Shown here one piece after another: positions 1 to 19,195 of a DNA stretch of 23,043 nt. The notes under the pieces are model-generated. The model was given only the letters and a program-made list of their open reading frames with translations, ran no database searches and was not told the DNA's origin. The stretch lies in the UHGV virus genome UHGV-1317269. One strand, 5' to 3'. The translations under genes were made by a program, and so were the position numbers. Within the stretch, counting starts at the first letter, position 1, and every line of letters starts with the position of its first letter. The DNA comes from a virus.

Positions 1-5
1 TAATC

Positions 6-203
6 ATGCTGGCGCAACATGCTCTGCTTATAGCAATTTCAAGCGACTTAAATGCATATGGTGTTGTGTGTGAGTTCGACTGGAATGATGGAAATGGTCA
101 GGAAGGATGGCCTCCAATGGATGGTAGTGAAGGAATAAGAATTACCGATATCGACACATCTGGAATATTTGATTCAGATGATATGACTATCAAAGCCGCC
201 TGA
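6..203 (+). CDS. hypothetical early protein; frame is open to the window start, so the true start may lie upstream
   Basis: ORF in the same orientation as the early operon; acidic C-terminus; followed by a hairpin at 192-213. Confidence 0.3.
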   Translation: MLAQHALLIAISSDLNAYGVVCEFDWNDGNGQEGWPPMDGSEGIRITDIDTSGIFDSDDMTIKAA

Positions 204-278
204 GCGCGGCTTTACCGCATACCAATAACGCTTCACTCGAGGCGTTTTCGTTATGCAATCAAACAGAAGGAGCATCCT

Positions 279-449
279 ATGCAACAGTTCGCTATTGCAG
301 GGGCGGCATCGGTTCGCCCTTTCAACCCGATTTTATCGGTGCAGCATTCACGAAAAAATATTTTAACCGGAGCAGACTTTAAACAACCAAGAATGAAAAG
401 TTTGCTCGAAAAGCTTTGGGATATTTTGAAACAACAAGGCCGTCCATGA
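279..449 (+). CDS. small hypothetical protein (56 aa)
   Basis: ATG at 279 preceded by AAGGAG at 268-273 (5-nt spacer); stop TGA overlaps the next ATG (ATGA), typical phage early-operon coupling. Below the ORF-track size cutoff. Confidence 0.35.
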   Translation: MQQFAIAGAASVRPFNPILSVQHSRKNILTGADFKQPRMKSLLEKLWDILKQQGRP

Positions 450-530
450 GTTTTACGGATAACTGGTCAGACGAAGAATTCATTCGTCAGATGAACAAAA
501 TGCTCAATCAGCACAAAGAACAGGAGAAAG

Positions 531-842
531 ATGATGATTCTGACTCTGAATGATAAGCGTGAAATATCGCAAATAATCGCAAGTTTTACTGATGAAGATT
601 ACGAGCGAATCAACAGTGAAGTTGATCGCCTCTGCAAACGTTGCGACCCAATAAGCGAAATGCTTCGCTCATATAAACCAGATGAACACACTAAGGACGC
701 TATCGACTGGCTGGAAGATGATGACTGTAACTATCAGGAAAAAGCCGCTGAATGGTTCTGGGATGCAATAACCGAAAGAGTTAAGGCTGAATATGCCTTC
801 GCAATATTCAAACGCAGACACATTTTTGGAGAAGCAGCATGA
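531..842 (+). CDS. hypothetical protein (103 aa) immediately upstream of recT
   Basis: AGGAG at 520-524, 6 nt before ATG 531; stop overlaps the recT start (ATGA at 839-842). Confidence 0.5.
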   Translation: MMILTLNDKREISQIIASFTDEDYERINSEVDRLCKRCDPISEMLRSYKPDEHTKDAIDWLEDDDCNYQEKAAEWFWDAITERVKAEYAFAIFKRRHIFGEAA

Positions 843-1741
843 GCAATATCGTTGAATTCGTTAAACAGCAAGAGCAGTTATTCTGCGGAGCATTGACTGA
901 ACAGACGGTGACATGGGCTAAGGAAAGCCAGTTTGCAATTCAGTATTTCCAGAAAAATGATTACCTGGCTAAAACGGCACTGGCAAATCCAACCAGCGCA
1001 CAGAACGCCATCATCAATGTTGCGGCGATCGGCATCACCTTAAACCCGGCCAGCAAACTTGCTTATCTAGTTCCGCGCGACGGCATGGTTTGCCTTGATA
1101 TCAGCTATATGGGATTACTTCACCTTGCACAGTCGACAGGATCAATTAAGTGGGGGCAATGTAAACTGGTGTACTCAAACGACACCTATGAATCAAACGG
1201 CCTTGATTCAGCGCCAACCCACAAATACACCGCATTTGGTGAGCGAGGCTCTATTGTTGGTGGTTATTGCACGGTTAAAACAGCAGATGGTGACTACCTG
1301 ACTGAAGAAATGAGTCTGGCAGAAATTAAAGCTGTGGAAGCAACGAGCAAGGCAAAGAATGGACCGTGGAAGACATTCTGGGAAGAGATGGCACGTAAAA
1401 CAATAGTTAAACGCGCCAGCAAATACTGGCCTAAAGCATCACGTCTTGATAGTGCTATTCACGTATTAAATGAAGAAGAAGGTGTATGGACTGAACCAGT
1501 TATGCCGCACAAATCAGAGGAAGATATACGCGAAGATGAACGGAAACGCCAGCAGGAAATAATGGATAAAGCACAACTTCTTTGTGATGAAATGGCTCAG
1601 GCAGAAAACATGGATGATTTGAAGCGATATTTTGCAGAAGCATATCGCCTGACAGCTGGAATGAAATTGCAGCAGAACGTACAAGCCATTTACGCAGAAT
1701 GCAAAGCGAAACTGGAGGTTGCCAGTGAGCAAACTGTATGA
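839..1741 (+). CDS. recT: RecT-family single-strand annealing recombinase
   Basis: 300 aa; contains NGPWKTFWEEMARKTIVKRASKYWP, which matches the conserved RecT-family block (E. coli RecT GPWVTHWEEMAKKTAIRRLFKYLP as I recall it); GGAG 8 nt upstream. Confidence 0.8.
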   Translation: MSNIVEFVKQQEQLFCGALTEQTVTWAKESQFAIQYFQKNDYLAKTALANPTSAQNAIINVAAIGITLNPASKLAYLVPRDGMVCLDISYMGLLHLAQSTGSIKWGQCKLVYSNDTYESNGLDSAPTHKYTAFGERGSIVGGYCTVKTADGDYLTEEMSLAEIKAVEATSKAKNGPWKTFWEEMARKTIVKRASKYWPKASRLDSAIHVLNEEEGVWTEPVMPHKSEEDIREDERKRQQEIMDKAQLLCDEMAQAENMDDLKRYFAEAYRLTAGMKLQQNVQAIYAECKAKLEVASEQTV

Positions 1742-2207
1742 AATTGCCAATGAATACGCAAAATTGATGGATTCAGATTTAGAGCCAGAGATGATTGCTG
1801 ACACAATAGAAGGCATGGAAGGAGAATTTACCGATAAAATAGAGCAACTTCTCGCCATTATTAAAAATGAATCTGGTTATGCTGAACGCCTCAAGGAAGA
1901 GGCAAAGTCACTAAATGAGCGAGCCGCAGTAATTCAAAATAAGATTGACAGCATTATGGCGTATATAGCGTCATCGCTTGAAATGGTTGGCAAGAAAAAG
2001 ATTCGAGCAGGTATTCACCAGGTAACAATCCGCAAACCGTCAGAAACTGTAGAAATCATCGACTCAAGCGCCATTCCTCCTGAATACGTTGAGTTTGAAA
2101 CGACAATTAAAGCCGACAAACTGGCAATCAAACACCAACTAAAAGCAGGAATAAATATCCCCGGTGCTCAACTCAAAGTTGGGAAACCTTCACTTCTTAT
2201 CAAATAA
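1725..2207 (+). CDS. Siphovirus Gp157-like protein (commonly paired with RecT/Sak recombinases)
   Basis: N-terminal SKLYEIANEYAKLMD and overall size fit the Gp157 family as I recall it; GTG at 1725 sits 6 nt after GGAGG (1714-1718); the TTG at 1719 used by the ORF track is less likely. Confidence 0.55.
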   Translation: MSKLYEIANEYAKLMDSDLEPEMIADTIEGMEGEFTDKIEQLLAIIKNESGYAERLKEEAKSLNERAAVIQNKIDSIMAYIASSLEMVGKKKIRAGIHQVTIRKPSETVEIIDSSAIPPEYVEFETTIKADKLAIKHQLKAGINIPGAQLKVGKPSLLIK

Positions 2208-2218
2208 TTGTATCGCCT

Positions 2219-2533
2219 ATGAAAAAGACTCCATGGGAGAAATGGGAAGTCGATTTCTTGCGCGAAGTGGCGGCGACAATGCCAGTTGAAGTTATCGCTG
2301 AAAAACTGGAAAGGACTGAAAAAGCAGTAATGGCGAAAGCAACAAGGATTGGCGCTGACATTGTTAGCCGACTTCGTGGAAGACGATGGACAAGAGCCGA
2401 AGTATCACTTTTCGGTAAGTTCTCCGCAGAAGAAATAGCAATTGCAACCTGCCGCTCAATTTATTCAGTAAGAGCTATGCGATACAAGCTAAAAAAACTC
2501 GATGAAGAGAGAACAGGCATACGAATAAATTAA
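2219..2533 (+). CDS. hypothetical protein with two tandem Trp-anchored helix-rich repeats (possible Myb/SANT-like DNA-binding protein)
   Basis: 104 aa; two ~40-aa repeats of pattern W-x3-EV-x-(F/L)-...-E(V/I)(I)A-...-R(T/S)-...-V-x-A(K/M)-x-(T/Y)(R/K)(I/L). Confidence 0.4.
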
Positions 2534-2692
2534 CAAAGAGGAATTTACCATGAGAGGACTTGCATACAATCCCGGCATTCTTCCAGCAGAAATGATTATT
2601 CGCCAACGCGTAAAGCCAATGCCATCGAGAGAGGAATTGCTTAAGAGAAATTCTTTTCCATCAGTGAATCAAAACAAATATCTGAATGCGAT

Positions 2693-3298
2693 GTGGCGGA
2701 GTGGGAAGAAATGAAACAAATGTCACTAATTGAGATGGATGGTTTTCTGAAAGGTAAATGCATCCCACGAGATTTAAAGGTTAACGAAACAAATGCTGAA
2801 TATCTGGTGCGTAAATTTGCTGAAGCGGAGGCCAAGATTTCGGCTCTGTCCGAAGACCAGCAGAGAGCGATTGAGTCAATTAAGCAGGCTGATGCAGCTG
2901 TTAAGTTGGCACACGAGAAGTTTTCGGCGCTTGCGGCGGAGAATGCGGCAATGCATGAAACTATTGAAGCCGTTCGGAGTGTTGCGGATAACTCCAGTGG
3001 AATTGCCGGATGGCATTTGAATGGCGATATCGCTACATGGGAAGAGATTCTTCCTGAAATTAACGATATCGAAACTCCAGCTACCGATGCTTTCCTGTCT
3101 GAAGTGCGGGCGCAGGGGGTGGATGCTGCTATAGAAGCTGCAAAAAATCTGGTGGCCCAAGAATATGAGTATAAGGATTTCAAAGCGGCGCAGAGTGATT
3201 GCTGTATGCACCCTGGTTCAGACCTGGTAGGGAAGGTTGAAATGACTGAGTGGTTAGTTGACTTTGCTGCCCAGCTTCGCAAAGGAGGCAACCAGTGA
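2693..3298 (+). CDS. hypothetical ea-region protein (coiled-coil rich); start uncertain (GTG 2693 or ATG 2711)
   Basis: 201-aa ORF, same strand as the early operon; stop overlaps the next gene start. Confidence 0.45.
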
Positions 3299-4338
3299 GC
3301 CAGATTGATTATCAGGCACTGCGTGCTAAGGCAGAAAAAGCAACGTGTGGCGAGTGGTCGCTCGAATATGGAGAGGGCCGATTTGATGGTGATGATGCTC
3401 TAATTCATCGCGAGGCTGCTGGATATATTCCCATTTGCAGAATTGAAGGGGCGCATCCAGAAAGCGGTTTCGATGAAGATTTCCAAATGGAACAGCAGGC
3501 CAATGCTGAATTCATCGCCGCAGCCAATCCCGCTACCGTCTTGGCGCTGCTGGATGAGCTGGAAAGAAACCAGCAATACATCAAACGCCGCGACCAGGAG
3601 AACGAGGATATTGCGCTTACGGTAGGGAAGCTGCGCGTTGAGCTTGAAGCAGCAAAATCAAAACTCAACGAGCAGCGTGAGTATTACGAGGGCGTTATCT
3701 CGGATGGGAGTAAGCGTATTGCTGAACTGGAGAAAAGCGAAGAGCAACTCATCAACGAGCGTGACCATGCTGAGTATGCTTTAGCTGATATGTATTTTGC
3801 AGCAACCGGGAACAGGCCGGAATGGAGTAACTGTTTCAGTTTTTCAGATGCAGTAGATGCCGTAGTTGACAGAATTGCTGATTTAGAAGCTAAACAGCCA
3901 TCGCCAGTAGTACCGGAAGAAAAACCAATGCCGAACCCTCTTAGCATGTATGCGGTTGATGCGGTTGCAGCTATTGCAGAGGTGAGAGGCTGGAACGCCT
4001 GTCGTGCCGCCATGCTTCATGGTGCCAAACCTGTAAGCCAGACTTACAAGTTGAACAAGCTGTCGGGCAACTCTCCGGTAACTCCGGATGGTTGGGTCAT
4101 GGTGCCGAAGAGACTAACAGCCGAGAACGGCGCTAAGGGTGCGCTATCCGGTGAATTTTCAGAAACTACGTTTATCAGCTGCCCGGAATGCTTTGGCGAT
4201 GATGATTGCGATACCTGTGACGGTAGCGGGCGGATTGAAATTAAAGTACCAGTCACATGGACGACCATAAAATCCATCTGGGATAAAGGTATTGCGTATT
4301 TTGCAGCAGAACCGCCGCAGGAGGTTAACCTTGGCTAA
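3295..4338 (+). CDS. Ead/Ea22-like family protein
   Basis: 347 aa; GTG start at 3295 with AAGGAGG at 3282-3288; the block NAEFIAAANPATVLALLDELERNQQ followed by coiled-coil is typical of lambdoid Ea22-like proteins; C-terminal Cys-rich CPECFGDDDCDTCDGSG motif. Confidence 0.55.
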   Translation: MSQIDYQALRAKAEKATCGEWSLEYGEGRFDGDDALIHREAAGYIPICRIEGAHPESGFDEDFQMEQQANAEFIAAANPATVLALLDELERNQQYIKRRDQENEDIALTVGKLRVELEAAKSKLNEQREYYEGVISDGSKRIAELEKSEEQLINERDHAEYALADMYFAATGNRPEWSNCFSFSDAVDAVVDRIADLEAKQPSPVVPEEKPMPNPLSMYAVDAVAAIAEVRGWNACRAAMLHGAKPVSQTYKLNKLSGNSPVTPDGWVMVPKRLTAENGAKGALSGEFSETTFISCPECFGDDDCDTCDGSGRIEIKVPVTWTTIKSIWDKGIAYFAAEPPQEVNLG

Positions 4339-4615
4339 CCTACAACTTGCCGTTAAAGGTGAATACTTCGATGCCATGATTCGCAGAGAGAAAACGGAAG
4401 AGTATCGCCTGTGTAATGACTACTGGAATAAGCGAATTATGTTCCGGGAGTATGATCGCCTGATTATCACAAAGGGATATCCGAAGCGCGACGATTCCAG
4501 CCGTAGAATTGATGTTCCGTATGACGGATATGAAATCAAGACAATCACACATCCGCACTTCGGCGATAAACCGGTAAAGGTGTTCGCGATAAAGGTGAAT
4601 ATCGGCAATGAATAA
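4331..4615 (+). CDS. ASCH/PUA-like (DUF3850-like) domain protein
   Basis: TTG start at 4331, 6 nt after AGGAGG (4319-4324); overlaps the upstream stop by 8 nt; LQLAVKGEYFDAMIRREKTEEYR resembles the ASCH-like N-terminal beta-barrel motif. Confidence 0.45.
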   Translation: MANLQLAVKGEYFDAMIRREKTEEYRLCNDYWNKRIMFREYDRLIITKGYPKRDDSSRRIDVPYDGYEIKTITHPHFGDKPVKVFAIKVNIGNE

Positions 4616-4649
4616 CAATCCTCGAACTCGCGGGGATTTCTTTTATCTG

Positions 4650-4675
4650 AACTCGCTACGGCGAGTTTTGTTTTA
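4650..4675 (+). terminator. putative intrinsic terminator (AACTCGC-tacg-GCGAGTT followed by TTGTTTT)
   Basis: 7-bp perfect stem, 4-nt loop, T-rich tail, directly after the ASCH-like gene. Confidence 0.45.
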
Positions 4676-4687
4676 TGGAGATGATAA

Positions 4688-4855
4688 ATGCACTTCCGAG
4701 TTACAGGTGAATGGAATGGAGAACCATTCAACAGAGTTATCGAAGCAGAGAACATCAATGACTGCTATGACCACTGGATGCTGTGGGTGCAGATAGCACA
4801 TGCAGACGTAACCAATATTCGAATTGAAGAACTGAAAGAACACCAAAACGCCTGA
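4688..4855 (+). CDS. small hypothetical protein (55 aa, MHFRVTGEWNGEPF...)
   Basis: ATG 4688 with GGAG at 4677-4680 (7-nt spacer); ends at TGA 4853-4855 inside a terminator hairpin; below the ORF-track cutoff. Confidence 0.35.
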   Translation: MHFRVTGEWNGEPFNRVIEAENINDCYDHWMLWVQIAHADVTNIRIEELKEHQNA

Positions 4856-4868
4856 TGGCGGTTTTTTT
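4845..4868 (+). terminator. putative intrinsic terminator (AAAACGCC-tgat-GGCGG followed by T7)
   Basis: GC stem followed by a run of seven T at 4862-4868. Confidence 0.45.
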
Positions 4869-4879
4869 GGGGGTAGTAG

Positions 4880-5095
4880 ATGGCTGCAATTCACATTGTA
4901 TCAATAACATGCAATGCAATTCAGATAGTTGCTTGCATTATCTTTGTTTTCTCAATCCTTCGCTCCCGACGATATTCTCCAGCAATTAACCGACATCCTG
5001 CACAAGTTGAAGCCGTCAGGATGGCTATAGAGTTACGAAATGAGATGAATAAGGCATTAATGGAGATGGAGAAACCATTCACTGACAAACATTAA
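4880..5095 (+). CDS. hypothetical small protein with hydrophobic N-terminal segment
   Basis: 71-aa ORF directly after the terminator; N-terminus IVSITCNAIQIVACIIFVFSIL looks like a transmembrane helix. Confidence 0.3.
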   Translation: MAAIHIVSITCNAIQIVACIIFVFSILRSRRYSPAINRHPAQVEAVRMAIELRNEMNKALMEMEKPFTDKH

Positions 5096-5203
5096 GAGTG
5101 GAAATAAAGAAATCACACCGCCTCACACTCGATGAGGCCTGTTCATTTCTCAAGATATCCAGACCTACCGCAATAATACCAATTCAATAAATGGAGATTC
5201 CAA

Positions 5204-5551
5204 GTGGAAGAAGAAATCTTCACTCGTGAAGAAGCTGCGTCGTATCTGAAGGTAGACAAAGGCACTATCACGCAGTGGATACGAAGTGGACGACTTCAGG
5301 CCGCAAAGATAAATCCAGATAAACCTAAAAGCCCATATCGCATTTGCAAGTCAGACTGCATTGCGGCGCTTAAGTCTGTGAGACACAATAGCGCGGTGAA
5401 TGCGGTTGATGTGCAGGAGGTTAAAGCATGTCAATCAAACTACGCGGTGGCACGTGGCACTGCGATTTCGTCGCGCCAGATGGATCAAGAGTTAGACGCT
5501 CTCTTGAAACATCGGACAAAAGGCAAGCGCAAGAACTTCACGATCGTCTGA
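5204..5551 (+). CDS. xis: excisionase (P22 Xis-like, HTH)
   Basis: 115 aa; GTG start 7 nt after GGAG (5193-5196); HTH-like EEAASYLKVDKGTITQWIRSGRL; sits immediately upstream of int and overlaps it by 124 nt in another frame, as in P22. Confidence 0.65.
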   Translation: MEEEIFTREEAASYLKVDKGTITQWIRSGRLQAAKINPDKPKSPYRICKSDCIAALKSVRHNSAVNAVDVQEVKACQSNYAVARGTAISSRQMDQELDALLKHRTKGKRKNFTIV

Positions 5552-6588
5552 AAGCAGAAGCGTGGAGAGTAAAAAATCTCGGGGAATCGCCGAAAAAGCT
5601 ATTCAAGGAAGCCTGCATACGGTGGCTGCGTGAGAAATCGGATAAGAAGTCCATTGATGATGACAAGAGCATTATATCGTTCTGGATGTTGCACTTCAGA
5701 GAAACCATTCTCTCTGACATAACAACAGAAAAAATAATGGAGGCGGTAGACGGGATGGAAAACCGCCGCCATCGCCTGAACTGGGAGATGAGCCGGGACA
5801 GGTGTTTGCGGCTTGGCAAGCCAGTGCCGGAGTATAAACCAAAGCTGGCAAGCAAAGGAACGAAGACGAGGCATCTGGCAATACTTCGCGCCATTCTCAA
5901 TATGGCTGTTGAATGGGGATGGATTGACAGGGCGCCAAAAATATCAACACCACGCGTTAAGAATGGACGCATTAGATGGCTTACAGAAGAAGAATCAAAG
6001 CGCCTGTTTGCAGAAATAGCTCCTCATTTCTTCCCTGTTGTCATGTTTGCAATCACGACAGGCCTTCGCCGCTCCAACGTTACAGACCTTGAGTGGTCAC
6101 AGGTCGATCTGGATAAGAAAATGGCATGGATGCACCCTGATGAAACAAAAGCTGGCAATGCGATCGGAGTTCCTCTTAACGAAACCGCATGCCAGATATT
6201 AAGAAAACAGCAGGGTCTCCATAAGAGATGGGTATTTGTCCACACCAAACCTGCCTACCGAAGCGACGGAACAAAAACAGCAGCGGTAAGGAAGATGAGA
6301 ACCGACAGCAACAAGGCATGGAAGGGAGCGTTAAAGCGGGCAGGCATTAGCAACTTCCGATTCCATGACTTGAGGCATACTTGGGCAAGCTGGCTGGTTC
6401 AGTCCGGTGTCTCTCTTCTTGCACTTAAAGAGATGGGAGGATGGGAAACTCTCGAAATGGTTCAAAGATACGCTCACCTTTCAGCCGGGCATCTCACCGA
6501 GCACGCGAGCAAAATCGATGCGATTATAAGTCGCAATGGCACAAATACGGCACAAGAGGAGAACGTGGTTTACTTAAATGTGAGGTAA
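5428..6588 (+). CDS. int: tyrosine site-specific integrase (phage integrase family)
   Basis: 386 aa; AGGAGG 7 nt upstream; catalytic signature residues visible (TGLRRSNV, HDLRHTWAS, VQRYAHL); transcribed towards the att core that starts 15 nt after its stop. Confidence 0.92.
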   Translation: MSIKLRGGTWHCDFVAPDGSRVRRSLETSDKRQAQELHDRLKAEAWRVKNLGESPKKLFKEACIRWLREKSDKKSIDDDKSIISFWMLHFRETILSDITTEKIMEAVDGMENRRHRLNWEMSRDRCLRLGKPVPEYKPKLASKGTKTRHLAILRAILNMAVEWGWIDRAPKISTPRVKNGRIRWLTEEESKRLFAEIAPHFFPVVMFAITTGLRRSNVTDLEWSQVDLDKKMAWMHPDETKAGNAIGVPLNETACQILRKQQGLHKRWVFVHTKPAYRSDGTKTAAVRKMRTDSNKAWKGALKRAGISNFRFHDLRHTWASWLVQSGVSLLALKEMGGWETLEMVQRYAHLSAGHLTEHASKIDAIISRNGTNTAQEENVVYLNVR

Positions 6589-6602
6589 CTTATTGATTTA
6601 AA

Positions 6603-6648
6603 TGGTGCCGATAATAGGAGTCGAACCTACGACCTTCGCATTACGAAT
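6603..6648 (-). other. attP core: 46 nt identical to the 3' part (anticodon loop through CCA) of a tRNA-Thr(CGU) gene, thrW-type; not a complete tRNA
   Basis: Reverse complement reads ATTCGTAATGCGAAGGTCGTAGGTTCGACTCCTATTATCGGCACCA: anticodon loop with CGT, T-arm GGTTCGACTCC and 3' CCA; the 5' half of the tRNA is absent (homology stops at 6648). Confidence 0.8.
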
Positions 6649-6931
6649 CTGTAGCACCTATCATAACTATCTGTTTTAGCAAGCATTAACCGCATTCACT
6701 AAGCTATAGTTGATGGCACAAACAGAAAGCTGATGCATGATGTTGTCATGTGTATGTCACAAATACGGCACAACGATCTTCAAACATGTAGCCACACATC
6801 AACAGAAGAGCACAACGCCTTGCAATCAAGTGCAAAGCTTTGTGTGCATCAGTTTTGTCTCATAGGTAATGAGGCTTTAACTGCGATGCAGTAATCCATA
6901 CTAAAATTTACTTAAAATTCATAAATACACC

Positions 6932-6965
6932 AGATAAAAACAATCCCGCATTTTTTATGCGGGAT
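6932..6965 (-). terminator. intrinsic terminator downstream of the tailspike gene
   Basis: ATCCCGCA-ttttta-TGCGGGAT hairpin (6943-6965) followed on the minus strand by TTGTTTTTAT. Confidence 0.55.
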
Positions 6966-6983
6966 ATACTGCATTTATTGCAA

Positions 6984-9689
6984 CTACATTGCCATTAATA
7001 TAAACATAGCCAATTCGTCATAACGAATTCCGTAGCGTCCTCCTGCTTTTTTTACAAGAATCATATCTCCTGTTTTATATTGAGAATAAATTTTCTCACC
7101 TGTATCAGGATCTGTGCTCTCTTCAGTTATCACCTCTTCATCCCATACGTCAGGCCATTCATCGTAACACCAAAAAGCATATTGCTCAGGGTTTAAACCA
7201 TGCTTTCTAAGAATATCCCCTACGGTTTGAGCGCCAACGCCAAAATGATACCTGGACGACTCAATTCCTTTGTGATTAATTGAGTCATTAAATTTAAATT
7301 TATAGATGACTGACTTTATTTCAATAGCGGCATCACGCTCTGCATTAAGAATATCATATCTTGTTTTAAGAGTTTCATCTGATGTATTGATTGACCCGGT
7401 TCCTGCATAAATAACAGAGCATCTGTTTGATGGCTGTCCAATAGCTTTAACATTATCATCAACAGGAGCTATTTTATTAGCATCTGCCAACCACCAGTCT
7501 GTTCCATCAGCGTGACCGATTCTTACTCTTATCCCGCTTCTAATATTTAAACTTCCAGTATTACTCTGTAAATTACAATCTCCTGACGTTGGTCCAAGCA
7601 GTACAGTTTTACCAACACCACATACTACTCTGGCATTTCCTTTTTGTGATACGAGTCTTGACTCACCTCCTGACTGCTCAGGAAGAGATTTATGGTCTAT
7701 AAATGCATCGCGGGGGTTAAATACACCGTCTCCAGAATTATATCTTCCTCCTGTATAGTTGTTAAATACAGGACCCCAGTCAACGCCATTGCCTTCAGAG
7801 CACCCGACCATTCTAAGCACTCGAGTATTCCCTGCTGCATATGGTAATGAGCTTGTTGATTGCCGGGAAGCTATCATACGTGCTCCATAACCAATAGCAT
7901 TACCACCATTTATAGTTACATATGCTTGCTGGCTTTCGAAATATGTACTGTAAAAGTTCATATTTCCACAGTCATGTAGATGAATAAGAACATCATCCCA
8001 TCCCTGAATGGTTCCTGCATGTACCTGTACACCGCGAACTGGTTCCCCTGAAACCTCCATACACTCTGATGGCCGGCTGAATGGCTGAGACAGGTATTGC
8101 GATGTGGCAAGCAGATGTGTGTGGTGATACAGGCTGGTAATGTAGCAATCGAAAAATTGCGTTCCCGCCATACCAAAGTTATCTATGTCATTTCGCCGTA
8201 TAGTAGAACCTACTGTTGCCTCAGAAGCGTTAGACACTCCAGTAAATACTAACTTATCACCGGATACGGATAATCCTGAATAAGTGAAATTCCTGCCTCC
8301 AGATCTTAAAACCCCGGACGTTTCGAAGGTGTGGCTTGCTGACCATGGGATTTCGATAGTGCTGGACGTTACCGCTGTAATTCGGAATACATCATGGGCG
8401 CGGATCGAAACACCCTTGAATCCTTGGAATCTACAGTGATAATAGTTTTCATCCTCGCCCTGAGCAGCCAGCGTGCCAGATACAGGAATGTTCGTTTTTA
8501 AAAGTGCCGTCTTGCGCCAGTATCCAACCACCTGCAAATTGCGGTATTCATTGCCAAAAGACGCACGTGACCAAATACCTACATCCCACTCATCGCCAAG
8601 ACCGGTATTTGCAATGTCTTTATAACCATCCAGCCCATTGAAATATGGAACAATACGAAAGTTCTCAAGGCGAACACATCCTGTCTCAGGCATCAATATT
8701 GCGGCAGAGAATGGTTTAAGTGTGGCTCTTGTAGCCCCATTAGCATCACCGTTAGTAAAATCCAATAAATCATATGATGAAGCAGGTGCCGTTGTTGTAT
8801 ACGGGTCTTCGGAAGATGGATTAGAAACCACGCCACCACTAACATCCATATTAGAAACACAATCTACAGTATATTTTTTATTTCCTACCCCGTACATCAG
8901 GAATGTGGTCCCTGTGGTAATATCAGGAGCAAATGTTGCAGTATATCCTGAGACCCATTTGCCCACACCAAGACAAATTATCCCACCACCAGAAACAGGT
9001 GTTAACGTATCCGTTATTACATACGCATTATCAGTACCATAAATAACCTTTCCTGTGTTAAGGGCAGCTTGCCACGCGGCCCAGTCTATTGACTGAGATA
9101 ATGAGTCAACAAAAGGATATAAGGATTTTGCTTCAGAAATTGAAGAAAACCACTCAGATAATGGATGATATTTCCCATCCCCAATTGCTCCAAATTGTTT
9201 TACATTTAAGAAAAGAGCATTGTTTTCATGCTGAGTTATAGTTACAGCCCCGGTAAATGGCTGCCTTACCCCAATTAATGCATCACCTTTTGAATCATCA
9301 TTAATGTATGCTCCTGATTGAGATAACTGCTCTTTGAAGTCTGGGCCAAACTGATCTGGATCGTATTTTAATACATTTGGGAAATAAAACTGCTGAGTGC
9401 CATAAGCATCGTAAACAGCCATAGAATGGCCTTGCACAGTTACGAACTTGGCAATCTGTCCGTTATATACCGGATATCCAGCAGCGTTAATGATGATTGG
9501 TTGCAAAACAGGAACGCGAGAACCGTCTTCGTTCTCTACATAAACCTGAATCTGGTTTTCAGGATTTACCGGGTCAGTGTCAATTTTTCCGATATAAATT
9601 TTGCCATTGGCAACCGCTTTAAAAGAACGAGCCATAGTGAAGAGTTGCGAAGGCATGCTTACCACAACATTGGCTGTAATGTCTGTCAT
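6984..9689 (-). CDS. tailspike protein: P22 gp9-like N-terminal head-binding domain, divergent receptor-binding body, C-terminal intramolecular-chaperone (peptidase S74-like) domain
   Basis: 901 aa; first ~110 aa ([11 protein letters not shown]...[32 protein letters not shown]...VLKYDPDQ) match the remembered P22 tailspike N-terminus; central region rich in G/S/T/N repeats; C-terminal [11 protein letters not shown] fits the S-D-x3-K autocleavage motif of chaperone domains. Confidence 0.88.
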
Positions 9690-9747
9690 TTAATTTGCTC
9701 CAGATACAAGGAATCTCCGCAGCGGGGCTACGGTGAATTTTGGGCAT

Positions 9748-9770
9748 AAAAAAACCCAGCCGAAGCTGGG
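9748..9770 (-). terminator. intrinsic terminator between ant and the tailspike gene
   Basis: Minus strand reads CCCAGC-ttcg-GCTGGG followed by TTTTTTT. Confidence 0.6.
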
Positions 9771-9789
9771 TAGTTGCGTTGGTTATCTG

Positions 9790-10692
9790 TCAGTGGTTAT
9801 GTACTGAAGGAGGTAATTCTTTATTCTTAAGTCTCATCCATGCGGAAAGATTCGTTGGTCCGTCTGGCTCATTGATATCAACATCTCGTGTGTGATTAAT
9901 TAAAACGTCCCTCGCCATTCCGATAACATACGAGAACTCATGACCGTAGTCGTAGCATCTGCCGGAATAGTTCGATTGAATTTGTTTTAATGCCGGATAC
10001 AGTTCGCGGAATAATGCCTGTGAGCGATTGGCATAATCCCATAGCCATACAAGGCTGTTTGCTTCTTTTGCAGAAAGCTCGTTGGTTTTCTTCTCTTGTT
10101 TGCCAATGAACTCACCTTCAAGCACTACCCTGTGGATGTACTCTACGGCTTTCGGTATCTGAGATGCATCAAGCTCTTCAATACTTTCCACATTGAAACG
10201 CTGATGAATCATTGCATAAGCTTCTGGGTACATTAGATGCTTTTTGCTGACCAGCATATTTACAGCATCACGAAGCGGAGTCCTGTCATCAACAGATGTT
10301 TTCTTACGTGCATTTTCTGCCTTTCCCTTCGTCCAGTAGTCATGCAGCACAGTAAAGCATTCTTCCTGGTACTGAATCAGTTTATCACGGATGTCAGCAC
10401 GAACTTTCTCAGGGTTGATGCTGAACAGCCATCCATTTAACTTCTTCAAAGGAAGACAGAGTAGCTTACGAAGCTTACCATCAGCGGCAACCATGTTCAT
10501 ATGAACACAGTTGAATTTGCTAATCTGCTTCATGAGTTTTGTTTGCTGCGTTGACCAGCTCATTCCAAGGTTTTCAACGATTGGCTTCATCGCAACATAT
10601 GCAACTCCGGCAGCCATGGCGGTGATAATTTGCTGACCGTTGAATGGTACGTAAGAGGTGTTCACTGCTTCTAAAATTGCTATACTATTCAT
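9790..10692 (-). CDS. ant: antirepressor Ant (P22 immI)
   Basis: Start set at MNSIAIL (ATG 10692, GGAG upstream), giving 300 aa, the length of P22 Ant; directly downstream of arc as in P22; the upstream in-frame extension used by the ORF track is not adopted. Confidence 0.7.
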
Positions 10693-10693
10693 G

Positions 10694-10760
10694 TTGGTTT
10701 TTCTCCACGGATTTACTGACAAACGAAGCCCTGACTGTTCCCGCAGTTGGGGCTTCAACT
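10694..10760 (+). ncRNA. candidate sar-like antisense RNA region covering the ant ribosome-binding site (by analogy with P22 sar)
   Basis: Plus-strand -10-like TATACT at 10681-10686 inside the start of ant; extended hairpin GAAGCCC...GGGCTTC at 10725-10756 in the arc-ant spacer. Inference only, exact ends unknown. Confidence 0.3.
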
Positions 10761-10922
10761 TTACGCGCCAATGCGCCCTTCCTTCTTAAAGCTTTCCATT
10801 ACTCTCTGATAAATCTCAGAGTTAACAGACCGACCATTCTCTTCCGCCACCTTGCGTACCAAATCCAATACTTCTTTAGGCCACCGCAAATTGAACTGCG
10901 GCATTTTGCTCATTCCTTTCAT
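10761..10922 (-). CDS. arc: Arc repressor (ribbon-helix-helix)
   Basis: 53-aa translation [53 protein letters not shown] is essentially the P22 Arc sequence as I recall it; the ORF track's N-terminal extension is not used. Confidence 0.95.
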
Positions 10923-10936
10923 GTTCACCTCACAAT

Positions 10937-10957
10937 ATAGGTCCACGGTGGACCTAT
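10937..10957. promoter_or_regulatory. Mnt operator (O_mnt), overlapping the Pant promoter
   Basis: Perfect palindrome ATAGGTCCACGGTGGACCTAT, the known P22 mnt operator. Confidence 0.8.
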
Positions 10958-10964
10958 TGAGAAT

Positions 10965-10985
10965 ATAGTAGAGTGCTTCTATCAT
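10965..10985. promoter_or_regulatory. Arc operator (O_arc) in the divergent Pant/Pmnt region
   Basis: ATAGTAGAGTGCTTCTATCAT, matching the P22 arc operator sequence. Confidence 0.8.
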
Positions 10986-11012
10986 GTCAATACACTAACT
11001 TGGAGTGATGGC

Positions 11013-11264
11013 ATGGCTAGAGATGATCCGCACTTTAACTTCCGTATGCCTATGGAAGTAAGGGAGAAATTAAAATTCAGGGCGGAGGCGAATGGGAGAT
11101 CAATGAACTCCGAGTTGTTACAAATCGTCCAAGATGCTCTATCAAAACCATCGCCTGTGACTGGATATCGTGACGATGCAGAACGACTCGCTGATGAGCA
11201 GTCAGATCTTGTTAAGAAGATGGTGTTTGATACGCTGAAGGATTTGTACAAAAAACCCACCTGA
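11013..11264 (+). CDS. mnt: Mnt repressor (maintenance of lysogeny; ribbon-helix-helix)
   Basis: 83-aa translation MARDDPHFNFRMPMEVREKLKFRAEANGRSMNSELLQIVQDALSKPSPVTGY... matches remembered P22 Mnt; divergent from arc. Confidence 0.95.
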   Translation: MARDDPHFNFRMPMEVREKLKFRAEANGRSMNSELLQIVQDALSKPSPVTGYRDDAERLADEQSDLVKKMVFDTLKDLYKKPT

Positions 11265-11278
11265 CGGTGGGTTTTATT
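11250..11278. terminator. bidirectional intrinsic terminator shared by mnt (+) and the converging minus-strand accessory operon
   Basis: AAAAAA-CCCACC-tgac-GGTGGG-TTTTATT; the mnt stop codon lies in the loop. Confidence 0.6.
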
Positions 11279-11699
11279 AGTGCTTGTATAGCTTGAACTC
11301 CCTGTCGAGCCATAAGACATAAAAAGTGGCTCCTATCTTATAACCAACCATAGGTGCCTTAGAGCAAAATCTGAACGCAATGAAATCCACATCTTGAGTA
11401 ACATGCTTAGGAATCGGAGCCTTTATCGCGTTTCTGGCAATTTTTTCCGTCCCAAGCCCGTGTTTATCAGATTTTCGTATCTCATCCCATGACATCTGAC
11501 TTAACCTGAACAGCCTATCTGCAAATGCTGCCTTTTCATGCTTTTGGCAGCAATCCAGGCAATACCCCTTTTGTAGGTATCTAAGAGAAAATACAGGCGG
11601 ACTTTTTTCTACATCATGAGATTCGTGATGGATAGAGAGGCCAACAGTAGCAGAGCTCTCTTTATCCCTCTGTTTTATTCTTCCCTTAACTCTAGACAT
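11277..11699 (-). CDS. hypothetical 140-aa protein, candidate toxin/effector partner of the upstream Panacea-domain protein
   Basis: Starts 5 nt after the stop of the upstream gene; no confident family assignment from reading; contains an R-x4-H element (RKSDKH) and a beta-rich C-terminus (MVGYKIGATFYVLWLD). Confidence 0.5.
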   Translation of the reverse strand: MSRVKGRIKQRDKESSATVGLSIHHESHDVEKSPPVFSLRYLQKGYCLDCCQKHEKAAFADRLFRLSQMSWDEIRKSDKHGLGTEKIARNAIKAPIPKHVTQDVDFIAFRFCSKAPMVGYKIGATFYVLWLDREFKLYKH

Positions 11700-11704
11700 A
11701 CACG

Positions 11705-12148
11705 TCAGTTAATTAACGTTTTGAAAAAACCTTTCATAGAATCAAGTGTGATTTCTTGGCTAACCGCACCCTCAATGTAAGCATCTTTCCATGGCTGCTC
11801 TTCGTGAGTCATATTGCGCAGTTTCCAGGCAGAAAACTGACCATAAACTTTATACACCTCATCCAGCAATTCAATTTCATCTTCACTGAATTTTTTAGCG
11901 TCAAAGTTTTCTGGCGCAGGTAAAGCTCCGTTACCACAGTCCCTATATTTACGATACAATTCAGGAACTACTGGCCCATGCATCCAGGCTTCAATTTTCT
12001 CATTAAATAGCGGCTTACCCAGAAGAACCAGAGAAAACCCTTGGGCATAATACGTCAACTTCTGAATTTTTAGGTTAGAGATAATGTCGCCACTTTCTTC
12101 ATCGCAATGCGCCAAGAAGTAGTCGGCGACATCAAAACAAGTGAGCAT
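11705..12148 (-). CDS. Panacea-domain (DUF4065, PanA/SocA/GepA-like) protein, candidate antitoxin
   Basis: NLKIQKLTYYAQGFSLV...FNEKIEAWMHGPVVPELY resembles the conserved core of DUF4065 as I recall it; start placed at the Met 7 nt after GGAGG (the ORF-track start is 2 codons upstream); AT-rich relative to the late genes. Confidence 0.55.
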   Translation of the reverse strand: MLTCFDVADYFLAHCDEESGDIISNLKIQKLTYYAQGFSLVLLGKPLFNEKIEAWMHGPVVPELYRKYRDCGNGALPAPENFDAKKFSEDEIELLDEVYKVYGQFSAWKLRNMTHEEQPWKDAYIEGAVSQEITLDSMKGFFKTLIN

Positions 12149-12522
12149 AAACATACCTCCATCTTGATAGCCGCAGCTATGTATACAACTGTGTCAAGTT
12201 GCATTTAATACCATAACAAAGCTGTCATCAATCCTTCAGAGGCTAACTTACAACCACTTTCTCGACACGTTTAAATCATTACGTTTCACATTTACTGCAT
12301 TTTCGCCGAAGTTACCTATAAGGTAATGTCACATTTCCTGCAAGTTTCATGCAATGTTGAAAAGTGAGCTATTCACTTTTCTATGACACTAAACACCAAA
12401 AATAGCACTTTTTGCTAAATCATTCGTCCAAGTTGTGGATGGCTTGTCGTTGACACGTTTTCACACACCACTCCACCAATACAGTATCATCTGGTATCCT
12501 GCTCAAAACTAAGGAGGTTGGT

Positions 12523-12729
12523 GTGAAGCGATGGGTTATCGGTCTTGCTGCAGTTACTGTTTTTATTTTCTCGGCTTCGACTGGTTACGGGGTTAGATTC
12601 TCATCATCAAGAATCAACGATAAGATTGAATGCAGATACATAAGTGTTTCCGGCAAATTCTCCAGAAATTACTGGTATTCAGATAATGGAATCATGGGAA
12701 TTAGCAATTGCCCTTTATTTGACAGATAG
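12523..12729 (+). CDS. small membrane-anchored or secreted protein (68 aa)
   Basis: GTG start 5 nt after AAGGAGG (12511-12517); N-terminal hydrophobic segment WVIGLAAVTVFIFSAS. Confidence 0.4.
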   Translation: MKRWVIGLAAVTVFIFSASTGYGVRFSSSRINDKIECRYISVSGKFSRNYWYSDNGIMGISNCPLFDR

Positions 12730-12746
12730 CCATCCGTGGCTCCTAT

Positions 12747-13037
12747 TCATTTTTTACAGGCGATGAGCAGATTCCTTGATATGGTGTTACCTGCAAATGC
12801 CATCTCTGGGTTTGCCGTTGCCAAAAATCCTTTGTCTCCTGCAGATGTCAAGACATCATATCCTTTGCTTCCACACAAATCGCCAGCCTTGGTTAGACAC
12901 ATACCCCATGAACCACCAAGACCTGAGCAATCAATAGTGTATGCCTCTCTGCCATCAGGCGCGTATGTTTTAGAAGATGTTGCACAACCAGACAAAAGAA
13001 TGACATTAAAACAAGCAACTGCAATGATCCGCTTCAT
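12747..13037 (-). CDS. putative lipoprotein (accessory gene downstream of gp16)
   Basis: MKRIIAVACFNVILLSGC is a signal peptide with a lipobox (LLSGC); Cys-rich mature part; preferred over the overlapping opposite-strand ORF 12736-13074. Confidence 0.5.
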   Translation of the reverse strand: MKRIIAVACFNVILLSGCATSSKTYAPDGREAYTIDCSGLGGSWGMCLTKAGDLCGSKGYDVLTSAGDKGFLATANPEMAFAGNTISRNLLIACKK

Positions 13038-13132
13038 ATCAATTTCCATATTTACAAAACCGGAAACATCCTAATGACAAAACAATCAAATGTGAAGCAC
13101 GAGATAAGATCAATCCATCCGTGGACGACTAA

Positions 13133-15259
13133 TTACTCCTGTGTCATTCCGCTTAGCGATGCCACAATCCCAGCCCTCGCTAATTGCTGAAACTCTTCGT
13201 TTCCGACTGTATCACGTATCGCTTTTACGGCAGCTTTATTTGCCATAAATCTGCGTTCAGCCGCCACTAATGCTTCTTTGCTTCCGCCTGCTCTTACTGC
13301 TTTAGTTGCTTCCTGAACTGCTTTCTCTATCGCATACCGACCACTACGTGTGGTGGCAATTTTAGATACAGCGCCTTTTAACCCAGCGCCAACTAAAGCA
13401 CCTGCGGCAGCGCCTGCAATGCCTCCTCCAGCGCCACCAACAATGGCACCTGATGTTGAGTTGGCAATTGCATTTAACACTGTTGATGTGACGTTGGATA
13501 AACCAGCATCCAGATCGCGTAGTACATTGGCAGTTCTCCCTGTTCTTTCAATATACTGCTGAGGTTTCACTGCTGCTCTTGCAAGAGTGCCATATGCATC
13601 AGCAATTCTTCCAAGCTCTGAGGAATATCGGCTAATGGCTTTTACATTTTGTGGAGTGAGTATCTCTGCGATATGGTTAATTCCTGCGGCATCAGCTTTG
13701 CCACCACGTACACCATGCGAGATGGCATCCTGCAACATTGATGATATAGCAGGAACACGCTCTGATTCTGGCAGAGCGCGGATCATAGAATGGAATCCAG
13801 CAGGACCATTGAGACCTTTAGCTGACGATGATTGAAGAGATTTTACTCCATTCGTAATCAGTGCATCTGTTGCCAAATCACGCCCGAAAACAGACTCTGC
13901 ACTCTCTTGTGCTGATAATCTCGCTTTAGACAGATCATTAGCTTTTTGCCAGTCATCAAGAAATCCGCCGTTTTCCGCCATTGTGCGCATATCATCAGTA
14001 ATTGCCCGGCGTATTTCCCCTGCTCTCCTTGCCGCATTTGCCTCTCCGCTACGCTTATATTTTTGCTCCGCATCAGCAAATTTCGCTCTCCATGCTTTCA
14101 TGCCATCAAATGTTACTCCACCTTGATTGTTTGCCTGAACAAACTGTTTCATTTCAGTAGTAAGCGGTATGCCGGCAGATCGCTCTGCCTGAATAACGGC
14201 ATTACCATTTAGCATTCTTGCTTTTTGATTTGGCATTGTTGACCGCACGTCATCCCATGCCGCGCGCTCGGCATCCTTCATCTGATCAAGATTTTGAAGA
14301 ATCCTTTGTTTTATAGCCGCACTTTTTTCTGATGCCGTTCCAGATGCGGCCCCAAATTCATCAAGGTTTCGACTTAACTTTGATGATATTTCGTTAAATG
14401 CTGCCTGATGGGCGTCCTGAACAATTCCTGGTGTTGATGCCAATGCGCCTTCGGCTTGTGCAATTCCACGACTTCCAGATCGCATTCCTGGTGTTAATGC
14501 GTTTATATCAATTCCAGCAGACTCAGCCGCTTTTGCTACATCTTCGGACACATTAGCGGCCTGTCTGGCAATTGACTGACGCCCAGCACCTGACTTTGCC
14601 ATCCTGGAAACATCATTAGCAGAATTCAGTGCTGCACCACCAAGAGCCTGTGAAACCCTTGGCGCAATAACGCGCCCGACACCTGAAAGAACGCCTTGAG
14701 CACCAATATTGATACCACCGTTAATGGCAGTATTTTGTGCAAAATCACCCTCCTGATTTGCAGCATCAGCAAGAGAACCTGCAATCATGTTTCCTGCGGA
14801 ACCGATGTCTCCTGCGAGCTTTGCTGGCGCTCCAGCAGCTTTTGCCGCTGTGCCAATTGGCAGGAGATACCCACCAATTGTTTCACCGGCTTGCGCGTAA
14901 GGGTCTGTCGGTCGATCGACTGGACGATAGACATCATCCAATACTTTTGGCCCACCAAGCCCCTGACTGATTGCATTAATCAGGCTTGCGCCGCCCTGCA
15001 ATACGTCAAATGGTATGTTTACCAGACCACGACCAGCCTGCTCTGCAATTTGCCCTGCACTTTGACCACCTGTGAGCCAATCGCCAGCTTGTTGCATCAA
15101 TGATGGTTCTTCACGTGCTGGTTCATTATTGGCCTGATTAACTGTTTGTTGCTGAACAGCCTGACCAGCAAAATACTCATCAATGGCGGTACCAATATCT
15201 TCCGTGCTCGTACCATCAGGGAAGGTAAATTTCTTACCGTTTGCAGTTACTTTCATCAT
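13133..15259 (-). CDS. ejection (injection) protein, P22 gp16-like
   Basis: 708 aa, in the gp16 position after gp20; Ala/Gly-rich low-complexity stretches; stop/start overlap with the upstream gene. Confidence 0.7.
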
Positions 15260-16668
15260 TCCACCGTAAATTGAATGCCTGATTTTGAGGTATATGATCC
15301 AACCTGATTCCGTGGTTCTCCTGAAGGTGTCGAATCTTGTGCTGGCGCTGCGTCAGTATTCATTGACATATACCGCTTAACGGCACTCCCCAATGATTCA
15401 CCTTTTTTAACATCCAACCCCAATATCTGACCGCCATTACGCGATTGTCCAGGGTTGCCATTCGCGCTCATCCACTCAGCTTTAAACTCATTAAACTGCG
15501 CGTTTCGTCGCTCAAGGTTTGCCATTGCATCAAGCCATCTTGCGACCGTCTCAGGGTTATCCATGTCAGTTGGCGCACCCTGTCGAACAATCTCAACGTC
15601 TTTATCCGTTGCTGGGCCGGGAGGTAGGAATTTAAGAACCTGACTGTTAACAAGGGCATTTTGGCGAATGCGCAAATCACGCAATGTCGTATCGCTTCCG
15701 GTAAGTTTTGCGAACATGTTCTGTGCGTTACCGAACAAACCGGTCGTTGGTTTTTCTGCTCTGAACTGTTGAGCAAGCGCACTCATGGAATTGGCTGAGT
15801 TTGATGATGCTGTGGCATTGTTTACAGCCGTCTCGATGCCTTTTTCCATGTTTACTGACAGCTTAGGTGCTTCGCTAATCAACTGCTGAGCCTTTTCCTG
15901 CGCTTGCTGCATCTTAAACCCGAACTCTTGCTGATCCAGAGCCAAGCGTTGTGCTGCGATATTGTGCCCAGTCATTGCTGACTGATAGGAAAGGTTTTGC
16001 CCTCTCGCCTGAAGTGCTTCACCAGCCTGATTGCTGCGGATTGTCTCTGCCAGCCTGCCTCGGTCAATTTCACGAACAGCCATCTTGTCCTGAACATTGA
16101 AGTAATCAATCGGACCAAGAGCAGCCATCCCAAGGTGATCAACAAACTCACCAAATCCTGAAGGATTCTGCTGATACATTTTCGCCACATCCAGAGGGTC
16201 TACTCCGGCACGAGTAAGCTCAGATGAGTTGTTCTGCAACCATGACATCATGGCTTCTGGAGATGAAGCTGCCAGTCTGGCACTTGCTGCCAGTGTGCCG
16301 ACAGTGGAACGCTGGTCTTCATCGACAAATTTCATGCCGTTTCTTACAGCGTCAAACTGCTCAGGATACTGTGATGCCAGTTTTCGCATTGCATCGCGGT
16401 CACCAGATGTATATGCATCAGCATAAGCCTGCTGAAACTCTTGCTGTCGCTTCTGCTGATCCATCTGCTTATACATATCCATGACAGATGAAATGCCCTG
16501 CAAAGCCTGCAAGCCAACGTTATTACGTCCTGAACGCTCCATCTCGTTATTCTGTCGAATGTATGCAAGCGTGGCGTCTGCATCACTTGCTCTTGGAGCG
16601 TTGGAGTTCATGCCGCCTAACCCGGCAAGAAGCGCGCCTGAATTACCAGCCTGTTGCCATGTAGCCAA
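15256..16668 (-). CDS. ejection protein, P22 gp20-like
   Basis: 470 aa (P22 gp20 is about this size), located between the gp7 and gp16 homologues. Confidence 0.7.
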
Positions 16669-16680
16669 GAGACACCTCCA

Positions 16681-17334
16681 TTAAAAAAGTGAACCAAGAA
16701 GACCGACGCCAGCACCAATTGCTGTACCCCAACCAGGCATGATTGCAGTACCTGCAGCTGCACCTGCTGCCGCTCCACCCAAGGCGCTCTGAAATCCTGA
16801 TGGTTTATTCGCATTAGCCGCAGATGCTGCCGCCTGCTGTTGATACAATTGGCTGACGTTGTTAGCGTAGTTCTGCCCAGCGTTTGCCTGACCTGTAAGA
16901 GCACCAAGGCCGATATTTGCCAGATTGTTGTAGTTGTTCATCTGACCTGACAGCCAGTTTTGACCGAGTGTAGGTGCGATTGCTGCTAACTGGTTTCCTG
17001 TTGCTGTAGAGCCTAATCCACCCGTTGCCTCTGCTGCTGCCAGACTCTGATAGCGCGCCTGCCCTGCAAGGTCTTTATACTGCTGAGAGTTGTAATACTG
17101 GTTAAGCGCCTGACCTTGCCCCTGAAGAGAGGAAAGATTTTGCAACTGTGATACGTACTGCTGAGCGAGTGGCGTGAACGGTGCAAGGTTCTGCATGTTC
17201 GTTTGCCACATTTCACGCTGCAATTCGATGCCCTTTTCAGTTGCGCGTGCCTGGGCTTTTGAACCGCCATCACTGCCACCTTTGCAGTAAACAGTTTTGC
17301 TGAGGTGCTTATTGGCAATCTGGAAAATTAACAT
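16681..17334 (-). CDS. ejection protein, P22 gp7-like
   Basis: 217 aa, Q/A/G/N-rich, position between gp14 and gp20. Confidence 0.65.
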   Translation of the reverse strand: MLIFQIANKHLSKTVYCKGGSDGGSKAQARATEKGIELQREMWQTNMQNLAPFTPLAQQYVSQLQNLSSLQGQGQALNQYYNSQQYKDLAGQARYQSLAAAEATGGLGSTATGNQLAAIAPTLGQNWLSGQMNNYNNLANIGLGALTGQANAGQNYANNVSQLYQQQAAASAANANKPSGFQSALGGAAAGAAAGTAIMPGWGTAIGAGVGLLGSLF

Positions 17335-17791
17335 TCTTTAGCTCCTCGTATTTTGAGCGCGGTAACTGATAAATCGTGATGCCTACAGGCTTTCCATTGC
17401 TGGTATAAGCATCATCGAGGTGACCAACACGGGTAGCGCCAAGCAAACGGATAATTGCCCGTCCGTATTTCGTTGTGTCAGGAACCATGGTGATGCTGTT
17501 AAGGAATGGTGAGTTTTCGAGAAGCCATTTGCAGAATAATCGATGCCCTTGCAGTGCATATTCACCACGGAATCCGGGGTCGTACACCGCATGGCATTCA
17601 ACAACGCTATGCCAGAAGTTACGCACTTCATGAACGCCAGCCAGCACTAATCCTTCGTAGATGCCGAGGTATACCGCATCAGGCTTGATGTAGTATTTAT
17701 CTCCACTGTCTACGATATTTCCCGTGTTTGCCGGGTTGTTGAGGAATTCTGCAAGCTTCACCGGATTATCGATGAGCTTTATTTCCATCAC
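17309..17791 (-). CDS. P22 gp14-like protein
   Basis: 160 aa; position directly after the tail needle gene with an ATGA overlap. Confidence 0.6.
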
Positions 17792-18636: not shown

Positions 18637-19174
18637 TAACATGCCTCCACGATTTACCAGACTGGATATTGTGAATCACCGTCTGACTGACACAGTATTT
18701 TTTAGCAAGCTCTCTTTGATTAACTCCCTTTGATTTCTTTATTTCTATTACTTGCTCATATGAGAGCTTTGAAATTGGATTATTTTCTCCTTTTAAAGCC
18801 GGAAACTTCACCCTGCCTTGAGATGAGCAATGCTTCATATTCTCCTTTTGAGTACACCACTCTAAATTAGAAGCATTATTATTTTTTCGGTTGTTATCTA
18901 TGTGATTTATGAACGGCTTGCCTTCTGGATTGGGGACGAAAGCAAGAGCGACAAGCCTATGCACAAGCCATTTTACTTTAACTCCATCAACACTAAGTGG
19001 CAAATATAGATAACCTTTATTATTCTCGTGTTGTTTTAGCCACCGACCCTTTCTGAGTTGCGTGCTGCCATGCGCAGCCTTAACAACACGTGAGTGAGAA
19101 TATACTCGCCCATCCTCTGTTACGGCATATAAACCTTCATATCCAGGAATATCTTTTGCGTTTTCACTCAACAT
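18629..19174 (-). CDS. free-standing HNH homing endonuclease (NUMOD4-like N-terminus, HNH core, C-terminal HTH)
   Basis: [16 protein letters not shown] (NUMOD4-like), [22 protein letters not shown] (HNH core), C-terminal [19 protein letters not shown]; own AAGGAG RBS 5 nt upstream; conspicuously AT-rich; P22 has no gene between 10 and 26. Confidence 0.8.
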
Positions 19175-19195
19175 ATCTACTCCTTTAGTTTCGAT

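Follow-up and report, generated by a model that had tools for sequence, protein, structure and literature searches.

The thrW attachment site of a P22-like phage with an SfX/HK542-type integration module

In phage lambda, attP is ~240 bp long and consists of a core between two arms that carry several Int arm sites; next to the core, on the int side, lies an IHF site, int adjoins the P' arm, and Xis serves for excision. The attP of P22 is ~260 bp long, with a 116-aa Xis and IHF sites (PMC4111918). A 46-base att core is common to P22 and to the phages SfI, SfII, SfV and SfX, and their target, thrW, adjoins proA (PMC3636060). In addition, the GenBank records of HK542, HK446, mEp213 and mEp043 annotate attP as 'similar to thrW'. 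The site described here lies in a stretch of 23,043 nucleotides of the virus genome UHGV-1317269, hereafter the window. It is the already described thrW attP of a P22-like E. coli phage in its phage form, and thus not a new kind of site. The interval 6536-6774 is very probably the attP of a P22-like temperate phage with an SfX/HK542-type integration module, seen in the joined phage form.

From xis to the arm (~5110-6860), the window is 96-98% identical at the DNA level to SfX, HK542, HK446, mEp213, mEp043, mEpX2, HK75 and ECP1, and its core, its G(G/T)CACAA sites and its IHF consensus agree with those of this SfX/HK542-type module. There are also differences. Apart from SfX, these phages are lambdoid siphoviruses with a tail fibre gene at the slot next to the arm, whereas the window is from a P22-like podovirus with a 901-aa tailspike there; SfX has gtr genes at this slot and the window has none; and past 6863 the sequences differ. 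P22 resembles the window in its identical 46-nt core and 23-bp annotated core, in the gene order tailspike, attP, int, xis, in an int end no more than 30 bp from the tRNA-derived core, in five same-strand repeats at almost the same positions, in TTGATTTAA adjoining the core and in the length of Xis (116 aa, against 115 aa in the window). It differs in that its Int is just 54% identical, its arm motif is GTCCCA instead of G(G/T)CACAA, its single P-arm site lies at +55 instead of +67, and gtrABC lie between attP and the tailspike; the two arms are unalignable save for the block at 6804-6863. With lambda the window shares the logic of the layout (core, arms, IHF site, int beside P', Xis), but the core of lambda does not derive from a tRNA and has just 15 bp in common with attB, the lambda arm sites lie outside the int coding sequence, and the lambda sequence has no similarity to the window. 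SfV, SfII, SfI and SfIV have the same 46-base core and the thrW target by proA (PMC3636060), and their Int is of the P22 type; they differ in having gtr genes right beside attP and a GTCCCA/GTCTCA arm motif.

The site occupies the gap between two converging genes, int and the tailspike gene, which is exactly 6589-6983 (Table 1). Its core begins 14 nt past the int stop codon, and 335 nt separate the core end from the tailspike stop. The core 46-mer TGGTGCCGATAATAGGAGTCGAACCTACGACCTTCGCATTACGAAT occurs once in the window with 0 mismatches, an occurrence not expected by chance. As the reverse complement of positions 31-76 of tRNA-Thr(CGU), with 46/46 identity to thrW, it runs from the base preceding the anticodon loop (the loop being 6641-6647) to the CCA end. 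Because this stretch is identical to the 3' part of the target tRNA up to CCA, integration restores the gene. The first-pass annotation of this DNA had proposed a tRNA-Thr-derived core of 46 nt, and this holds in full, as the core is also identical to the published 46-base core of SfI, SfII, SfV, SfX and P22 (PMC3636060). A complete tRNA gene was considered and rejected: ARAGORN finds 0 tRNA genes in the whole window, and Rfam gives no tRNA match at E<=1 in 6300-7200, so that only the partial tRNA is present, as had been supposed. The segment at 6619-6641, equivalent to the annotated P22 core, is the probable strand-exchange region, judging from its sequence.

Table 1. Positions of genes and of candidate sites in and around the attachment site of the window
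Feature	Position	Strand	Remarks
xis, excisionase, 115 aa	5204-5551	+	Overlaps int start; Pfam HTH_17 match
int, tyrosine integrase, SfX/HK542 type, 386 aa	5428-6588	+	Pfam Phage_integrase, E=1e-34
Candidate P' arm-type Int pair, GGCACAA at 6538 and 6549, 11-bp spacing	6536-6555	+	Last int codons; 20-nt repeat with 6754-6773
Candidate H' site, perfect IHF consensus AATCAATAAGTTA	6586-6598	-	Overlaps int stop codon; between int stop and core
att core, 3' 46 nt of tRNA-Thr(CGU) thrW	6603-6648	-	Exact match, single copy in the 23-kb window
Equivalent of the 23-bp 'attP core' of P22 RefSeq (AGTCGAACCTACGACCTTCGCAT)	6619-6641		Identical to P22 misc_feature 21300-21322
Candidate P-arm arm-type site ATGGCACAAA	6713-6722	+	67 nt past core; repeat family D3
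Candidate P-arm arm-type pair, GTCACAA at 6756 and GGCACAA at 6767	6754-6773	+	108 and 119 nt past core
Conserved block, ~60 bp: imperfect palindrome GCACAAcGCCTTGCA-N6-TGCAAAGCtTTGTGTGC, then degenerate P22-type site pair (GTCNCA-N5-GTCNCA)	6804-6863		Sequence comparison
Terminator-like hairpin, intrinsic terminator of tailspike gene	6943-6965	-	9-bp stem (5 G-C pairs), then TGTTTTTATC on minus strand
Tailspike gene, P22-type, 901 aa	6984-9689	-	Converges on attP; Pfam Head_binding, E=3e-66, and C-terminal Peptidase_S74 chaperone domain

The genes on either side of the core are those of a phage. A tyrosine integrase gene adjoins the site and reads towards the core, with xis upstream. Int is 99% identical to HK542 Int and 54-55% identical to the Int proteins of P22 and SfV (54% to P22), and the residues R214, K241, H313, R316 and Y348 of its catalytic region are invariant in the alignment. 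In Int residues 1-179, Pfam recognises no arm-binding domain and gives only a weak match to DUF6538 (E=0.013); matches in the PDB cover the catalytic domain alone. The Xis protein is 42% identical to P22 Xis, and its counterpart in the HK542 record is annotated as an excisionase. Left of the core lie int, xis and early-left genes; to its right lie the tailspike gene, ant, arc, mnt, ejection genes and immI genes. The number of promoter consensus matches (1 versus 2.6 expected) is not meaningful. A hidden gene in the arm was also considered and rejected, since the longest ORF is 53 aa and has no support.

The first-pass annotation had described the ~330-bp arm as holding only short repeated motifs, and this is borne out, but the relevant repeats are not the TGTCATGTGTATGTCAC that it quoted. 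That sequence is present at 6745-6761; its first half (6745-6753) varies among 17 related arms, and its second half is part of an invariant ATGTCACAAATACGGCACAAC block. As a protein site TGTCATGTGTATGTCAC was therefore rejected on account of its variable first half, and the ATGTCAC part alone is retained, within an arm-type pair. The repeats that matter are instead five copies of G(G/T)CACAA, starting at 6538, 6549, 6715, 6756 and 6767, the first two inside the coding end of int. In the whole window the motif G[GT]CACAA has 6 copies, of which these five lie within 6538-6773, all on the plus strand. Relative to the core, the attP of the window, SfX and HK542 has an int-side pair at -65/-54, a single site at +67 and a distal pair at +108/+119, with the motif G(G/T)CACA(A); that of P22 and SfV has an int-side pair at -65/-54, a single site at +55 and a distal pair at +109/+120, with the motif GTC(C/T)CA, the P22 GTCCCA sites being assigned from the repeat pattern alone. 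P22 and SfV thus have five same-strand repeats at almost equal distances with another motif, which is what the comparison with P22 attP suggested in the first-pass annotation brings out. Furthermore, 17 distinct arms of this type show no variation at 6711-6729 and at 6754-6774, and the sequence between these two segments varies. Because the geometry is conserved while the motif has changed, the five G(G/T)CACAA repeats are likely to be arm-type Int sites.

Matches to WATCAANNNNTTR number just 2 in the 23-kb window, and the candidate H' site is one of them; the TTGATTT part of this site is kept in P22 and SfV. The functional attP is accordingly predicted from sequence to span ~6536-6774 (239 bp), which agrees with the ~260 bp of P22 (PMC4111918). 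It would reach ~53 bp into int and use ~126 bp of the 335-bp arm.

The target of integration is seen directly in the chromosome of E. coli DLL7555, where a prophage 99.5-99.96% identical to the window is inserted in thrW by proA. Identity is 99.8% for window 1-2945, 99.5% for 3283-6648 and 99.96% for 6598-20296. The two halves of the window junction lie 41 kb apart in DLL7555, at opposite ends of the prophage. On the int side, the order is int, core, the remainder of a complete tRNA-Thr(cgt) and proA; on the tailspike side, it is tailspike, arm, core, an integrase remnant and the vat island. In the DLL7555 locus (L002), copies of the core stand at both prophage junctions, 3634-3679 and 44494-44539, and the int-side copy completes the tRNA-Thr(cgt) at 44494-44569. 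The same element is thus found integrated at the predicted attB, with a core copy at each end. Since the identity between the window and each DLL7555 junction starts and stops exactly at the 46 nt, the window holds the joined (attP) form and thrW is the target, as the first-pass annotation had predicted for a thrW-type tRNA-Thr gene; its claim of phage DNA on both flanks is likewise correct, as the two ends of one prophage both align to the window, where they meet at the core, and the gene annotation agrees. For annotation, this comparison fixes both the integration target (thrW) and the prophage ends of a P22-like phage. The only early-left stretch of the window that does not align to the DLL7555 prophage is 2945-3283 (L002 40685-41174), a small mosaic replacement among ead/Ea22-like genes.

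The form of the junction points to excised or packaged phage as the origin of the DNA. The first-pass annotation had called this an unintegrated arrangement, and the junction form supports this, but the phage-phage context from which it argued is by itself no proof. In the chromosome record of E. coli E10 (NZ_CM143887.1 3864472-3868737), int, the thrW core, a P arm of the same type and a head-binding tailspike gene occur together in one piece, as either tandem prophages or a scaffolding error would give. Accordingly, the window might derive from a chromosome in which prophages lie in tandem at thrW, so that the boundary int-core-P arm-tailspike mimics attP. That thrW collects serial insertions is apparent from the integrase remnant and vat island beyond the DLL7555 prophage, and certain hybrid junctions in IMG/VR look as would be expected for the boundary of two different thrW elements. 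The sides of the window junction, however, match both ends of a single prophage type at 99.5-99.96%, and no complete E. coli genome has the exact junction with this tailspike. A tandem origin is therefore improbable, and even if it were true, the site would still be a functional attP sequence.

An assembly artefact, in which the 46-nt repeat led the assembler across from attL to attR of one integrated prophage, is less probable still. In principle, k-mers of 46 nt or fewer would give an int-core-arm path in a de Bruijn graph even with no attP read, and a fold-back join found in no reference genome occurs in this contig, at 20296/20297. That join, however, has just 4 nt of microhomology and is thus not a repeat collapse of this kind; spontaneous induction normally yields true attP reads; and this attP is common in contigs of phage form (17 in IMG/VR, besides the NRZ14408 phage record). 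Both the tandem and the assembly explanation lose ground because there are many phage-form contigs and because both sides belong to one phage type, and neither alters what the site is. That the window should be an attL or attR boundary with host DNA on one side has practically no probability and is refuted by its phage flanks and by the DLL7555 junctions: the tRNA fragment alone speaks for it, whereas the left flank holds int, xis and early-left genes, the right flank holds the tailspike gene and immI genes, a complete tRNA is absent from the window, and in DLL7555 the real attL and attR of this phage have a different appearance.

The fold-back join deserves a description of its own, since on account of this aberrant join the contig assembly is not beyond doubt. 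At 20296/20297, through the 4-nt microhomology, gene 10 on the minus strand, with ~100 N-terminal codons missing, is fused to the plus-strand scaffold gene at its middle, after which come the coat gene, gene 4 and the beginning of gene 10. This stretch (within 20259-23043) matches the DLL7555 prophage at 100% identity in inverted orientation, and the window closes with 38 nt that are exactly the reverse complement of 20259-20296. Neither complete E. coli genomes nor GTDB representative genomes contain the junction, which has the look of a chimera, from amplification or from long reads, or of defective phage DNA.

Taking 6536-6774 as the attP of a P22-like phage in joined form, a mechanism can be proposed; we infer the bases that Int, IHF and Xis would bind, the exact point of exchange and the physical state of the DNA from sequence comparison. 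Int would act as a two-domain tyrosine recombinase related to P22 Int, with one domain binding the core within the 46-nt stretch identical to thrW and the N-terminal domain binding the five G(G/T)CACAA sites, of which the int-proximal arm has two and the distal arm three. IHF would probably bend the DNA at the candidate H' site. Recombination with the identical 46 nt of chromosomal thrW would then insert the phage, such that next to int an intact tRNA-Thr is restored by the 46 nt that the phage brings in, and the host copy that they displace comes to lie beside the tailspike gene; Xis would reverse the integration. The window itself may represent circular, concatemeric or virion DNA.

Beyond the predicted attP, the arm contains a block (6804-6863) that is common to P22, SfV, HK542 and many other prophages, including one that is not at thrW. 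Among the fetched loci (L001-L115), the block occurs 128 times, and 52 of these occurrences have no thrW core within 320 bp upstream; a prophage near dacD in strain M160133 is one instance without the core nearby. The block starts 76 nt past the core in P22 and SfV and 165 nt past it here, so that it is 89 bp closer in P22. The int-attP mosaic module ends at 6855-6863, where homology to all relatives stops. The stem of the block is 87% paired, with compensatory changes at 2 pairs, and the repeat pair inside the block varies among arms of this type. A sib-like RNA hairpin 3' of int (stem at 6808-6848) was considered for this block and set aside, as pairing is alike on the plus and minus strands (86.9% versus 84.7%). 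Since both strands pair equally and the stem also occurs without a thrW core, it may be either an RNA hairpin or a protein-binding palindrome. The fold z-score of the region is -4.3, a value that includes the tRNA-derived and terminator stems.

In addition to the sites of pure type, hybrid attP sites are found. Eight IMG/VR contigs (L009, L010, L012, L015, L017, L018, L022 and L023) combine, by way of the identical 46-nt core, a P22/SfV-type Int and GTCCCA P' sites with a G(G/T)CACAA P arm, and in these loci the GTCCCA repeats sit in the 3' end of the P22/SfV-type int. The reverse combination of Int/P' and P-arm types is seen in phi458 (L007). Such hybrids are either phages that function with mixed arms or places where tandem thrW elements meet. 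Because eight hybrid contigs mix the types, the difference in arm motif may not mean distinct specificity; if the hybrids are working phages, this would mean that the two Int lineages cross-recognise arm sites and that arms swap as modules at the 46-bp core.

One might go further and regard the SfX/HK542 attP as a re-armed P22-type site with the same core and geometry, in which GTCCCA has given way to G(G/T)CACAA. In such a history, the P-arm pair might be a copy of the P' pair, as 6754-6773 and 6536-6555 are identical at 19 of 20 nt, and the P22-type pair 89 bp further out (6845-6863) might be a decaying relic; the hybrids bear on the exchange of arms. This reading, cross-recognition and the exchange of arms included, is conceivable but doubtful. 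Overall, the arm geometry with its shifted motif, the hybrid sites and the palindromic block are of modest specialist interest and leave the established picture unchanged.

With regard to the slot between attP and the tailspike gene, no gtr genes are present in 6589-6983, where no ORF exceeds 53 aa, so that the absence of gtrABC claimed in the first-pass annotation is confirmed together with its main observation, and its interpretation is supported. The P22-type lysogenic conversion locus, with gtrABC between gene 9 and attP, is thus lacking in the window, and the phage is one without an O-antigen conversion cassette in the usual slot. In P22, gtrC, gtrB and gtrA lie between gene 9 and attP, and in SfV gtrA directly adjoins attP. 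Two IMG/VR contigs (L018 and L008) with the same attP flank have GtrA_DPMS_TM and Glycos_transf_2 genes between the arm and the Head_binding tailspike gene; there is also a third gene in the slot, which in L018 matches Pfam Glucos_trans_II and in L008 matches no Pfam family. In the NRZ14408 phage record the slot is occupied by an O-acetyltransferase gene, and it is empty in both the window and the DLL7555 prophage. Since the slot holds variable cargo, the absence of gtr genes is unremarkable.

The tailspike gene is not confined to this attachment site. An identical 901-aa tailspike ends a prophage by torT/torR/torCA (L028, ENA ERZ28651151 scaffold_3), where the same tailspike travels with a different integration module. 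Finally, two further ORFs of the window should be noted, both on the minus strand. One in the immI region (11705-12154, 149 aa) is annotated in DLL7555 and other assemblies as having a Panacea (SocA-like antitoxin) domain. The other, of 181 aa (18629-19174), lies between the tail needle gene and gene 10; it is annotated in DLL7555 as a NUMOD4-domain protein, which would make it a homing-endonuclease-like insert in the late operon.
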